Part shown: positions 385 through 60,985 of the stretch, piece after piece
Position numbering within the stretch: position 1 is the stretch's first letter
How the letters are laid out: each line of letters begins with the position of its first letter
Assembly (NCBI RefSeq): GCF_006345805.1
Contig: NC_042999.1
Coordinates: forward strand, 22,382,001-22,446,000
DNA from: Octopus sinensis
Taxonomy: Eukaryota
Reading direction: 5' to 3'
DNA: 64,000 nucleotides
The notes under the pieces: model-generated
What the model was told of the DNA's origin: nothing
Seen by the model: only the letters and a program-made list of their open reading frames with translations
The model's database searches: none
Made by a program: the position numbers and the translations under genes

Positions 385-456
385 TCTCACTGAAGAATTC
401 TCCCTGAGCAAATAAATTATCTTTATTGATGAAAAGAAAGAAACTGCAGTCTGAGA
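385..456 (+). ncRNA. Type I hammerhead ribozyme motif (PLE pLTR-type)
   Basis: tctca-CTGAAGA-(ttct...agaa stem II)-GAAA-ctgcag-TC-tgaga. Stem I is tctca/tgaga, stem III is the palindrome ACTGCAGT, and the cleavage triplet is GUC. Confidence 0.7.
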
Positions 457-1419
457 ATTACCGGTTTAGTAAATGTTTTTATCTTCATTTCACTTAATTT
501 ATCAAGCTTCTGTATTCCTAGCACATATTTCGCCTTAATGTACTGATATATGAAAAATATATGGCTTGTGTTAGTAATACCAGCGATTATAATTATTTTT
601 ATTTTATCGCAATTTGATTTGTTTATATATATATATATATGTGTTTGTGTGTGTGTATATATATATACATATATATACATACATGCATATATATACACAC
701 ATACATACATTTATATATATATATATATATATTCAAGATTGTGTGAATCCATTATATATCTATCTATATATTATACTGTATATTTGGATATATATATATA
801 TACAAACGTGAATATGTATTATATAGTGCGAGTATGTATCCATATATACAATACAATATATATATATATATATATATATATATATATATATATATATATA
901 TATATATATATATACGTATATCTGTATACATATGTATGTGTGTGAGTTTATAAGTAAGTATGCATAAAGAAGTCATATATTTCTTGTTATAGGCATTTTC
1001 ATATCGAGTTCATTATTCATTTCCTACAGCCAAGCAAGAAACTCATGCATACATACACACAAACGCATATATACATACACCCAAACGCATACATGCATAC
1101 ATACATACACACAAAACGAGCTCAGAATACATACGTAGGTACGTACGTACATACATCCGTGTTTTTAGTGCGTTTATTGACGTGAAGGCATTTTACAGCA
1201 TTCTTAGACCTTTAACTAATATTAACATTTATATGTCATCTTTATATTGTGCTTGTATATGTGCAGGTACAAATGTATATGCACTTATACGCATACACAC
1301 ATGCACACGTACACAAACATATATACGTATATGCATGTTTAAGCTTATATATAAATATATATATTAAACTATATATGTATGTGTGTATAGATATATATTC
1401 ATACGCATATATAGAATTA

Positions 1420-1960
1420 CAAACACATACATATATATTTATAAACACATATATATTATAAACACATACATATATATTTATAAACACATTATATATATTA
1501 TAAACACATACATATATATTTATAAACACATACATACATGCATAGATGCACACATATCGGTATACACGTACGTATACGCATGCTTATGCTTATATATAAA
1601 TATATATATTAAAATATATATGTATGTGTGTGTAGATATATATTCATATGCATATATAGCATTATAAACACATACATATATATTTATAAATATATCATAT
1701 ATATTTTAAACACATACATATATATTTATAAACACATACATATATATTTATAAACACATACATATATATTTATAAACATTTCATATATACTATAAACACA
1801 TACATATATATTTATAAACACATACATATATATTTATAAACACATACATATATATTTATAAACATTTCATATATACTATAAACACATACATATATATTTA
1901 TAAACACATAGATATATATTATAAACACAAACATATATATATATTTATGAACACATACAT
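1420..1960. repeat. AT-rich minisatellite, ~22-bp unit (tatttataaacacatacatata)
   Basis: Unit visibly reiterated with variants. Confidence 0.8.
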
Positions 1961-2857
1961 GCATAGATGCACACATATCGTTATACACGTACTTATTGAA
2001 CGTTACAAGCCTGGGTTCACAAGAAACGGAATTTTTTCAGCCTCGTATGCAATTTACCTGTTAACATTTTCTGATTCTGCAGAGCAGGTCATTTATATCA
2101 ATTTTATTTCGTGTGAGCGTGTGCGCGTGTGTGCGCGCGTGTGTGTGTGTGTGTGTGTGTGTGTGAATTCGCAAACTTGAAATTTGGTATTCGGGAAAAT
2201 ATGAGAAAACGAGAAAACAGAAAGTTGCGTTGGATTTTTTTTTTTTTTTTTCCCTTCCGAATTGTCTTTAAATTTTATTTTCATCTACTTTGACAGAGTT
2301 CATTGATTTTTCCGCATGACTGTTTCGTTTTAAAAGCAAATATACATTTAAGTATGTCTCGGGTTATGTCGATTGAGGACACATTAAAAGAAATAATTTG
2401 TGGGGAAACTGGCGCACACATAAACATGCAACAATATATTCTATTCTTTTCTTCTTTTATTTATTTCAGTCATTTGACTGCGGCCATGCTGGAGCCCCGC
2501 CTTTAGTCGAACAAATCGACCTTAGGATTTATTCTTTGTAAGCCTAGTATTTATTCTATCGTTCTCTTTCGCCGAACCGCTACGTTACGGGGATACCAAC
2601 ATCGGTTGTCAGGCGATGATGGGAGAGGGACAAACACATATAAATGATATGCATAACATATATATATATATAAATATATATATACATATATATATATATA
2701 TATAATATATATATTATATATATATCTAATAAGTTCAGCAAAAATTAGATTCAAATGAATATGGTTCTTAATTTAGATGCACCAGAATTTTGAATGGTGT
2801 TAACCATAAAATCCGTGGGGTGATTATAATCAAAATAAGCAACAAGAATGACTCCGG

Positions 2858-2950
2858 TAATTTGGTATGATCGTTTCGTACTACATAATTTTATTAAATG
2901 TTGTAAGTATTACAACAGATTTAAGATGATGAGTACTCATCAGCCAATTA
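2858..2950 (-). ncRNA. Type I hammerhead ribozyme motif in PLE 3' region
   Basis: Minus strand: taattgg-CTGATGA-gtact...agtac-GAAA-cgatca-TA-ccaaatta. Stem III is one substitution away from the palindrome ACGATCGT. Confidence 0.7.
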
Positions 2951-3529
2951 TAGAGGTTTTCCATTAATGAAAAAATTTTCAAATCAAGTGGCAACATTAT
3001 AGAGAATGTAGATATATAGACAAAGATGTGGATTTAAATGTTAAAAACATATGAGGTAGTAGAGTCCACTGACTGACTACAATCTGGTTGTTCTGACTGC
3101 TATAAGGTTAGAAGCAATAAAGATTTTTTAATTGTAGAAATGGGGTAAAGGGGGTTTCAGAACTCCATAAAAGAATTCATGTTGGCGACAGCAATTGCCA
3201 CTAACAAATGTCAATTACTGCTATTTGATGAGAGAACTAGGTCAATGTTAAATGGTCCCAATACCATTCACAGAAAATGTAATTTAGAGAAAAAAGGGAG
3301 AAAAAGCTATCACTTATTATTATGAGTAGGCATAGTACTTTTTAATTGGTGGAAGGTCTTATTAATTTTAAAGCTAGATTAATTTTAGAAAAAAATTCAA
3401 TTTCAAGTTTGCAGAGAAGTTTTTATAGTCATCTATGAATGTTAAATAGAAAGCCAAAATCGGTATATTTCTTCTTATTTGATTACAAAGAATTAAAATT
3501 TGAAAAATATAGGAATACTCATAAAATTA

Positions 3530-3975
3530 TTATTTAAAGTATTTAAACGTTCGGGTTGTGCAATGTATACAAGATAATCTCAACTCAAGACGGTTATTCA
3601 ATAGATTTGTATTACTCTGATGTTTTAAAATTTCATAAGTTTCCTTAGAACAAAGTTGACAACCATCCCTACTATTTCTATAAGGTTGCGCCCTTCTAAC
3701 TATATCCCATTTTAGGTTGAATTCTATATTATTTGTTTTTAGTTCCCAAATCTTGCTAGATAGTGTTGTGCAACCAGCCTTATGTCTGAGTCTAAAAGAG
3801 GAAAAATGATTGTTAAGACGTCTTTTAAGATCCACCGAACAACCGAAATAAAGAAAGCTATTGCTAGAAGTTATTATTGTGCATTTATAAATTACGTTTT
3901 GGACCGAACAACGACCGGATACCGGACATTTTGATCTAATCCTACAATTACAACTGGGGGGGGATAGTGTCCGGT
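3530..3975 (-). pseudogene. PLE GIY-YIG endonuclease domain
   Basis: VIY...YFG...KRRLNNH...CQLC..E motifs. Joined to the upstream Asn-rich frame (3892..4272) by an apparent frameshift in the G8 run at 3956-3963. Confidence 0.85.
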
Positions 3976-59177: not shown

Positions 59178-59406
59178 TATTTCTTTATTGTCCACAGGGG
59201 GATAAACATAGATGGGGACAAACAAGGACAGACAAACGGATTAAGTCGATTACACCGACCCCAGTGCTGGTACTTAATTTATCGACCCCGAAAGGATGAA
59301 AGGCAAAGTCGACCTCGACAGAATTTGAACTCAGAACGTAACGGCAGACGAAATACGGCTACGCATTTCGCCAGGCGTGCTAACCGTTCTGCCAGCTTGC
59401 CGCCTT
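59178..59406 (-). mobile_element. Meta-domain SINE family B, full length
   Basis: Family match. Confidence 0.88.
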
Positions 59407-59988
59407 ATGGGTTTATATTATCATCCAATGCTTCATTCCATTTTCAAGGTGTGATTTAAAAAAAGATTTGACTGCTATTTCTTGCAAGATAATCAGCTCT
59501 CTATAGGCTTCCAATTATTCTTGACAAGGTGGTGGATTTAACAGAATTCGTAGAATGCCGGAACAAAATATCTTGCGATATTTAATTACAGCACTTTATT
59601 ATCTGAATTCAAATACTGCCAAGGACGAGTTTGTTTTCATCTCTCCAAGATATTTCATCTTCTCCATTTAAAAATAAATAAACAAATAAATAAATAAATA
59701 AATACAAGAAACTTCCTATCCAGACACTTCGTCTTCCTTGTTTCCATGACTTTCTTTACTGATTTATAATTACAAGGAATTCAAACTAAACTATTTTATT
59801 TCAAAGCGTGCTAATTGAAAAATAAAAAATAAAAATAAGAAAAAAAAGAATAAAGATTTATTAATATAATTAGTACATAGTTTAATTTATTTCGCTAGAT
59901 TTGCCATGTTTTGTTTTTTGAAAATTTGTTTTGTTTATTTCTTTTGAGTGCACATTTGTTTTCCTTTTAATTTTCTTTTAATTTTCAG

Positions 59989-60054
59989 CCGTTATAACTA
60001 TGGGTTGGCGAAGACGGTGAGTATCTGCCAGAGTCTCGGGGGAAAGTTTTATAG
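59989..60054 (+). CDS. Candidate small internal exon of an unidentified host gene
   Basis: Long polypyrimidine tract with ttttcag acceptor. Consensus GTGAGT donors at 60017 and 60055. Open frame RYNYGLAKTVSICQSLGGKFY. Confidence 0.4.
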
Positions 60055-60481
60055 GTGAGTCTCAATCGTCTGCTTGGATCCTGTAGAGGCTTTTACGGAT
60101 TAAGTCTTCATAGTTTCAAATTTTGATACAAAGCCAGCAAATTTAGGAGTTTAGGAGTGTGAAGGTTAGTGGAATACATCAACCCCAGTATTCAACTGGT
60201 ACTTATTTTATTGACACAGGTTACCTCCTAATAGTGTGTAATTAGAAAACGCGGCGAGCTGGCTGAATCGTTATCACGCCGGAAAAATGTTTAGCGATAT
60301 TTCTTTCATTTTACGTTCTGAGTTCAAATCCTGCCGAGGACGATTGTGCCTTCCCAACCCTTCCGAGGTTCATAAAATAAGTACAAGTTGAGCACTGGGA
60401 TCGATGTAACTGACTTGTACCCACTCCCAAAATTTCAGGCCTTGCACCTAGAGTAAAAAATACTGTGTAACGAGAGAGAAC

Positions 60482-60625
60482 TACATTATTTACATTTGAT
60501 GGATATATGTCCTCATCTTATTTGTTGTTAACACAACGTTTCGGCTGATATACCCGCCAGCCTTCATCAGGTGTCTTGATGAATTTCGAACCAAGGTTCT
60601 CATTCCTAAGGTATTTTTCAATGTT
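60482..60625 (-). mobile_element. Inverted copy of the HHR-bearing tail (HHR at 60531-60574)
   Basis: Minus strand: acac-CTGATGA-aggctgg...tcagcc-GAAA-cg-TT-gtgt. Confidence 0.8.
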
Positions 60626-60693
60626 ATTATTATTATTATTATTATTATTATTATTATTATTATTATTATTATTATTATTATTATTATTATTCA

Positions 60694-60985
60694 TATGGCG
60701 TTGTAGTTAAGAGCGCGTGCTACTAACCCCAAGATTCCGAGTTCGATTCCAAGCAAGGACTTGAATAATAATAATAATAATAATAATAATAATAATAATA
60801 ATAATAATAATAATAATAATAATAATAATAATGATAATAATAATAACATCGAAAAATACCTTCGGAATGAGAGCCCAGGTTCGAAATTTCCCTAAAACAC
60901 CTGATGAAGGCTGGAAGGTTTATCAGCCGAAACGTTGTGTTAACAACAAACAAGATGGGAACAAATATCCGTCAAATGTAAATAG
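60694..60985 (+). mobile_element. tRNA-like head + (AAT)n + hammerhead-bearing tail (HHR at 60897-60940)
   Basis: A-box-like tggcgttgtagttaag at 60696 and B box gttcgattcc at 60741. HHR acac-CTGATGA-aggctg...cagcc-GAAA-cg-TT-gtgt. Confidence 0.7.

Follow-up and report, generated by a model that had tools for sequence, protein, structure and literature searches.

Hammerhead-bearing repeats with fixed (TA)n ends in the genome of Octopus sinensis: tails of Penelope-like elements, probable non-coding parasites and a predicted split-core design

The stretch of DNA analyzed here, positions 22382001-22446000 of contig NC_042999.1 (64 kb, below called the window) from the 2.72 Gb genome of Octopus sinensis, is saturated with microsatellites and harbors many repeats that contain hammerhead ribozyme motifs. 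An earlier note on this DNA had listed about 17 motifs of type I belonging to at least eight families. Inspection of all 17 sites identified 14 structured type I hammerheads (ten intact and four with a single defect), two broken copies of a real family, and one spurious site. The CUGANGA/GAAA core and stems I to III are intact at 385, 6269, 40068, 60531, 60897, and in five of the six motifs of an array with a 547-bp unit. The stems are kept with one core change at 38671 (A6>U, family-wide), 42778 (U4>C), and 55147 (A9>G, in the 547-bp array), and the motif at 2858 has an intact core and a single mismatch in stem III. As compared to their intact relatives, the broken copies lack C3 and stem III (7770) or the GAAAC block (8203). 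The site at 17892 was rejected as a ribozyme: its core reads AUGAUGA, only 17935-18031 is derived from a repeat, and the relatives of this piece have unrelated upstream DNA and no motif. Both the descriptor scan and these relatives identify 17892-18031 (plus strand) as unique DNA fused by chance to a repeat fragment rather than as a hammerhead. The listed sites thus represent seven real lineages, or eight if the related families F1 and F2 are separated. Absent from the earlier list were a family with a U3-A8 core (9606-9642), the second motif in each unit of family D, and a set of motifs with a split core.

The type I families differ in their organization. Family A (327-630, plus strand) is a monomer, truncated at its 5' end, of a tandem unit of 396 bp, with a hammerhead at 385-456, a palindromic stem III and a 3' end at (TA)n; its 3' marker has 468 exact matches in the genome. 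Family B (2727-4208, minus strand) is a 5'-truncated Hydra-like Penelope-like element (PLE) with a GIY-YIG open reading frame (ORF) at 3533-3976 and a hammerhead at about 2858-2950. Family C (6043-6562, minus strand) is non-coding; its unit measures about 420 bp and contains inverted pieces, a long hairpin (6071-6240) and a hammerhead at 6268-6347. Family D (7329-8400, plus strand) consists of an inverted piece and a decayed dimer of a 471-bp unit, and its motifs are broken in the window; intact relatives have two motifs per 471-bp unit that are 108 nt apart, and one of them reads CUGUUGA. The window copy of D is about 87% like the young copies and has many deletions, which reflect either decay or an assembly error. 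Family J (9504-9809, minus strand) is an inverted repeat element with the U3-A8 core variant at 9606-9642, and its pattern matches 1,728 sites in the genome as compared to none for the control. Family F2 (38546-38793, plus strand) is the 3' end of a PLE whose endonuclease is Neptune-like, with a hammerhead at 38671-38706 that carries A6>U throughout the family; N7 differs among the F2 subfamilies, and U6 may be a tolerated variant or the mark of a dead ribozyme that is still spreading. Family F1 is present as a fragment (40032-40144, plus strand; hammerhead 40067-40101) and as an element (42670-42886, minus strand; hammerhead 42778-42810 with U4>C) that has its (TA)n in common with family X, which is described below. 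Family G (54406-57531) forms the array of 547-bp units, four on the minus and two on the plus strand, with an inversion at about 56415 and six hammerheads; its arms stop about 193 and 290 nt past the cut site, each at (TA)n, and its 3' marker has 3,968 matches in the genome. A, C, D, and G are non-coding and dispersed and occur as partial tandems and inverted pairs, and the copies of A and G are 98-100% identical. Finally, family H (60482-60984) is an inverted pair with a tRNA-like head, internal (TAA)n, and hammerheads at 60530-60575 (minus strand) and 60896-60941 (plus strand), and it ends about 50 nt past the cut site, away from (TA)n. The combination of a tRNA-like head, (TAA)n, a minimal hammerhead and a short tail, often in inverted pairs, suggests that H is possibly a hybrid of a short interspersed nuclear element (SINE) transcribed by RNA polymerase III and a PLE; the tRNA-like head is a likeness to A and B boxes judged by eye, and ARAGORN detected no tRNA in any of six loci. 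At 61273-61320 (plus strand), there is another candidate of type I whose core is U3-A8 and whose stem III is palindromic.

The motifs by far exceed what shuffled DNA yields. Our type I descriptor tolerated an extra letter beside stem II and required at least 4 bp in stem I, at least 3 bp in stem II and a palindromic stem III; a scanner that does not allow the extra letter after A9 overlooks real motifs of the window. There were ten strict hits in the window and none across 60 local dinucleotide shuffles, and with one core mismatch allowed, 12 hits versus none across 25 shuffles. Stem III or its loop is palindromic in 13 window motifs. In the Rfam scan of the window, the best 150 of 283 rows contained no hammerhead family, and the matches represent microsatellite and hairpin noise. 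Sixty 10-kb stretches taken at round coordinates (599,900 bases in total) contained 12 palindromic motifs with up to one mismatch, compared to a mean of 0.125 in eight shuffles. Extrapolation from this 600-kb sample gives about 54,000 motifs in the genome (95% interval 28,000-94,000). The window has seven motif loci versus 1.3 expected from the sample, an about fivefold excess (P = 4e-4) for a window that was picked post hoc. An exact genome count for the pattern with an ACGU palindrome gave 13,261 matches versus 261 for the reversed-pattern control. At least ten additional type I families were seen in the 600 kb of sampled DNA. The hammerhead guild is a property of the genome and is not special to the window.

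Most families end at a fixed distance from the ribozyme. For each family, we determined how many nucleotides separate the cut site from the next (TA)4, which begins within 10 nt of only 2.8% of random positions. The distance was 171-178 nt for 11 of 27 copies of A (with another six one unit beyond), 35-45 or 131-160 nt for 12 of 13 copies of B, 103-119 or 200-238 nt for 11 of 11 copies of C, 128 or 223-230 nt for 8 of 31 copies of D, 96-116 nt for 16 of 18 copies of F1, 94-106 nt for 11 of 16 copies of F2, 192-200 or 289-298 nt for 12 of 26 copies of G, and 145-149 nt for 19 of 32 copies of X. Among the examples printed, the misses in the tandem families are mostly internal units. The idea that most elements are bounded by (AT)n or other simple repeats is borne out at the 3' ends of A, B, C, D, F1, F2, and G. 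Family H is the exception, as its (TAA)n lies inside the element. Of 12 inverted pairs from families B, C, D, and G, 11 have a different end on each arm, and three non-coding families have the PLE-like signature of two alternative ends. The two ends per family match the two internal start sites of the reverse transcriptase (RT) reported for the Poseidon element of anole (PMC11167929). A preference for (TA)n has been published for Naiad, Neptune, and one octopus Hydra element (PMC8557442).

Two of the families can be assigned to coding elements. In family B, the hammerhead sits downstream of ORFs for RT and GIY-YIG in the majority of 35 loci, frequently accompanied by an upstream inverted copy. 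The window ORF at 3533-3976 scores just below the Pfam cut-off for GIY-YIG (E = 3e-4; 21.4 bits versus 22.6), and the genome search returned 20,192 first-look candidates for this family with open frames of up to 804 amino acids. The order of RT, C-terminal GIY-YIG with a CxC-type linker, hammerhead, and (TA)n target corresponds to the Hydra type, and the RT and linker motifs are, as judged by eye, like those in the Hydra alignment of PMC8557442. Compensatory changes between the B subfamilies affect all three stems: UUGG/CCAA to UUAG/CUAA in stem I, GUAC/GUAC to GCAC/GUGC in stem II, and ACGAUCGU to ACAAUUGU in stem III. For F2, one locus has an F2-type motif after a GIY-YIG ORF whose cysteine linker is Neptune-like, with no (TA)n in between, and this endonuclease resembles, again by eye, the Neptune clade of PMC8557442. 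Judged from these reading frames, B and F2 can be identified as tails of PLEs with a GIY-YIG endonuclease. Among A, B, C, D, F1, F2, G, H, and J, it is B and F2 for which a location of the hammerhead in the pseudo-long terminal repeat (pLTR) is demonstrated.

A second design was found in family X and its relatives Y and Z. X (41622-42628, plus strand) comprises 1.3 units of a young, 765-bp non-coding repeat that ends at (TA)n, with motifs at 41638-41780 and 42400-42544 and predicted cuts after 41713 and after 42477. Y (4954-5113, minus strand) is a 5'-truncated copy from which the block with the cleavage site is gone. The X unit reads, in this order, GGCUG (the 10.x strand), a helix strand called Px, GCAAU-C (16.x and C17), UCAAGA (stem I), a linker of 4-5 nt, CAGCC-GAAA-UUGC, the Px partner, UCUUGA, and CUGAUGA. 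Thus, all core letters are present but in a non-circular order: the stem II strand comes from upstream and splits the core at A9/G10.1. The closing helix, together with a hairpin, would bridge A9 and G10.1. The upstream stem II partner forms 5-6 bp in X and Y, compared to 0-2 bp for the downstream one. When X was read by eye as type I, type III or a ribozyme like that of hepatitis delta virus (HDV), the pairings needed were absent; in the split order, the motif pairs throughout.

The split-core pattern has 6,916 matches in the genome versus one for the reversed-pattern control. We aligned 34 of 54 distinct full-length copies of X, Y, and Z, with redundant X copies and deleted copies excluded; since many copies were found via core patterns, the conservation of the core is in part due to construction. 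In this alignment, 88.4% of the cells pair, and both the cells and the score exceed the shuffles (0 of 500 as high). There are two compensatory pairs each in stem I and Px, and all four letters occur at N7. In the loop between stem III and Px, the G/A positions are retained in 32-34 of 34 copies, with variable bulge letters; this loop fits the consensus of a kink-turn. Among 80 of the 118 stretches from a metagenome pattern scan, one passed a loose filter, and it lacked the architecture and was taken as a chance match. The X stretch is covered by assembled contigs from sequencing runs under three organism labels, which as contigs cannot show ends or expression. Our literature search, which extended to papers outside subscription, revealed no description of a split-core hammerhead and no survey of octopus hammerheads.

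The same design is found in DNA that is unrelated to X, Y, and Z. A generic split-core descriptor, which gave no matches in 100 window shuffles, was applied to 1.73 Mb of loci and led to group W, which is unrelated in sequence and alike in design. The W pattern has 5,698 matches in the genome versus six for the reversed-pattern control, and all four helices are kept in 12 of 25 sampled copies. In the 17 of these 25 copies that were aligned, both sides have changed in 13 of 22 pairs (0 of 500 shuffles as high); a weaker downstream alternative for stem II, of 2-4 bp, exists in most copies. Moreover, the consensus tails of Naiad_Obim and Naiad_Ovul in the supplement of PMC8557442 have the split-core order when read by eye, with stem II GACAC/GUGUC, Px CGGAU/AUCCG, stem III AUGGU/ACCAU, A17, stem I CUGCCC/GGGCAG, and CUGAUGA; two other Naiad tails from that supplement match partially or not at all. 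The octopus Naiad tail motif has 446 exact matches in the genome. Comparison of the stem letters of X/Y/Z, W, and the Naiad tails indicates that stem II covaries between the groups with G10.1-C11.1 being kept. PMC8557442 reports no canonical hammerhead in Naiads and lists Naiad_Ovul as 'HHR_half_core'. With respect to Naiad membership, X, Y, and Z have the tail fold and the (TA)n target, but no N-terminal GIY-YIG and C-terminal RT upstream in 29 extended loci. The split-core design is likely the hammerhead of the Naiad clade.

Taken together, we regard the window as a dense sample of hammerhead repeats with fixed (TA)n 3' ends: two are PLE tails and the rest likely non-coding PLE parasites, and two ribozyme designs with presumed catalytic activity are present. 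We assign this reading a probability of about 0.78. A tandem or read-through transcript would be bound by the RT/GIY-YIG protein of a PLE, which may act in trans on the non-coding units. This protein would nick (TA)n and prime cDNA at one of two internal sites that lie 35-300 nt beyond the ribozyme; we propose that priming at either site accounts for the fixed ends as well as the mirror-image pairs. Multimeric RNA would be trimmed by the ribozyme, and the type I motifs may do so as dimers via their palindromic stem III: dimers were computed to be 6-11 kcal/mol below two monomers in five of five cases tried, and the active fold was not always reached. Two designs would occupy a common niche, the known minimal type I hammerhead and the split-core motif of X, Y, and Z, in which the 10.x strand, Px, the cleavage block, the GAAA block, the Px partner, and CUGANGA follow one another; a kink-turn is predicted to lie between stem III and Px. 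We regard this split-core member as a well-supported structural prediction; all its helices may close in a monomer or may need a strand-swapped dimer. Beyond this, we lean, with less confidence, towards the view that Naiads and non-coding parasites carry an active hammerhead of a topology that has not been in print: non-circularly permuted, with the core open at A9/G10.1, an upstream stem II strand, and a kink-turned closing helix, in at least 13,000 copies from three unrelated groups. The RNA copied into (TA)n would owe its 5' end to this cleavage.

Several observations weigh against these ideas. The distances in family H are scattered, with no (TA)4 within 600 nt in 8 of 14 copies, and this family breaks the (TA)n rule. 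Moreover, the copies of each family were taken as best hits, which biases them toward young copies. Further points concern catalysis: the F2 pattern has 16,721 genome matches with U6 and 209 with A6, and at this position a natural A6C change gave less than 0.1/min (PMC3088659). The minimal PLE hammerheads are described as poor cleavers (PMC4209133), the one PLE reconstituted in vitro inserts without ribozyme cleavage, with no RNA-seq reads starting at the cut (PMC11167929), and here the arrays were copied straight through several ribozymes. All this is compatible with the idea that the repeats are indeed PLE tails and parasites, and that their hammerhead folds are largely non-catalytic and serve in protein binding or positioning of the RT, or are mere passengers. 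The fixation of U6 in F2 and in one D motif, the dispensability of cleavage in vitro, and the multimers copied uncut would all fit. However, unrelated families keep the core letters, with drift at N7 and covariation of C3-G8 to U3-A8, and the anole PLE ribozyme does cut with the help of protein (PMC11167929). We therefore consider this alternative unlikely, even though it fares best among the competing explanations.

For the split-core motif, there is no compensatory change in stem II within the 34 copies of X, Y, and Z or within W, and the number of covarying pairs in the X/Y/Z alignment is not in excess over the shuffles (207 of 500). Minimum-energy folds of the motif lack stem I, as expected for pseudoknots, and so lend it no support. 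We found no RT or endonuclease ORF linked upstream of X, Y, or Z in 29 extended loci, and no RT motif within 1.5 kb of any of 20 Naiad-type tails. Among 30 X/Y/Z copies chosen solely by a marker 3' of the core, ten extend upstream of the cut by over 250 nt. Of the 20 copies that are truncated, six begin 5-15 nt past the predicted cut (P = 4e-4 against a uniform null), an interval that was set after looking and in which the pile-up overlaps AUUAAU with microhomology to (TA)n. The motif might be no more than a stable stem-loop of the repeat with hammerhead letters by coincidence, an explanation favored by the lack of covariation of stem II inside either group and by the selection of many copies with core-containing patterns. 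Yet X/Y/Z, W, and the Naiad tails, which are unrelated in sequence, place all core letters and four helices alike, and the descriptor remained without matches in the shuffled windows. A coincidence of this kind is improbable in our view.

Even less credit can be given to the possibility that the non-coding units are viroid-like circles which replicate from RNA to RNA and enter the genome by reverse transcription only now and then. The tandems, whose units measure 396-765 bp and contain one or two motifs, look the part, and coral retrozymes do have circular RNAs (PMC7229834), but copies in the young families are 98-100% identical, the ends obey the PLE rules, and no ribozyme was seen on the opposite strand of any unit. 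Finally, chance matching in DNA rich in AT and microsatellites does explain 17892, and looser type I descriptors do find about two matches even in each shuffled window, but for the other 16 of the 17 sites the shuffle, sample, and control counts refute this explanation, which has next to no probability left.

With the preferred reading of PLE tails and parasites, the dense guild of PLE-mobilized ribozyme elements proposed in the earlier note stands as far as the motifs, the many dispersed families, the B and F2 PLE 3' ends, the fixed 3' ends at (TA)n, and the stem covariation between PLE subfamilies are concerned; this picture has, however, largely been published already. The type I guild is real and mostly ordinary, a new and large instance of the known PLE hammerheads and non-LTR (long terminal repeat) retrozymes. 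What it adds is scale and a mechanistic link, i.e. twin fixed ends in coding PLEs and non-coding retrozymes alike. The split-core motif, if true, would widen the allowed wiring of the best-studied ribozyme, explain the apparent lack of hammerheads in Naiads, and imply that standard descriptors overlook many animal ribozymes.

The window also contains features other than hammerhead repeats. A 185-bp SINE-like unit that lacks a hammerhead motif is present in five tandem copies, 98% alike, at 20809-21733, and a tandem array with a 29/59-bp period is located at 26653-26952. A long near-perfect inverted repeat flanked by (TTA)n runs is present at 14561-14651. The broken fragment of a long interspersed nuclear element (LINE) at 15576-17470 (minus strand) includes an RT domain (Pfam RVT_1, E = 4e-13) and is interrupted at (TA)n. 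Pieces of one abundant repeat are found at 11697-11886, 17935-18031, and 40144-40405; its antisense translation is reminiscent of the end of a restriction-like LINE endonuclease. The short ORF at 58069-58368 (plus strand) is reminiscent of the end of a mariner-type transposase, for which Pfam gave no match.

The type I motifs of the window closely resemble the minimal hammerheads of PLE pLTRs (Cervera & de la Pena 2014, PMC4209133): common to both are the type I order, the extra letter after A9, the palindromic stem III, and the U3-A8 variant, as well as many families per genome, pairs on opposite strands, and mostly solo truncated copies. That study gives up to about 9,000 motifs, whereas the octopus genome has tens of thousands plus the U6 family with 16,721 copies, and several motifs found here have, unlike those, long stem II loops. 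The animal non-LTR retrozymes (PMC7229834, bioRxiv 10.64898/2026.07.22.740005) are non-coding tandems with type I hammerheads and units of a few hundred bp and have been proposed to be PLE derivatives; likewise, A, C, D, and G consist of dispersed tandem non-coding units that each contain a type I hammerhead. Differences from the published retrozymes are the twin fixed (TA)n 3' ends as in a coding PLE and the two motifs per D unit. With the Hydra, Neptune, and Naiad clades (Craig et al. 2021, PMC8557442), the repeats share the (TA)n preference, partial tandems, inverted copies, and, with Hydra-1_Obim, the hammerhead; the Naiads, presented in that study as devoid of a canonical hammerhead, here contain the split-core motif in their octopus tails. 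The two ends, the AT-rich targets, and the upstream hammerhead are in common with the Poseidon PAc mechanism (Frangieh et al. 2024, PMC11167929), but the ends are about 95-120 nt apart as compared to 30-40 in Poseidon, and the mirror pairs seen here use one end each. Finally, the closest published relatives of the predicted X/Y/Z fold are the Type-SGC hammerheads (Eckert et al. 2023, PMC10085705), with which it has in common the S-G-C order with all core letters, the short linker between stems I and II, and an extra helix that joins the other sides of the stems. In contrast to Type-SGC, X/Y/Z have a predicted kink-turn and reside in animal retroelements, and their 10.x strand precedes the cleavage block instead of following A9: block C is split, an arrangement that was assumed to be impossible (PMC10085705).

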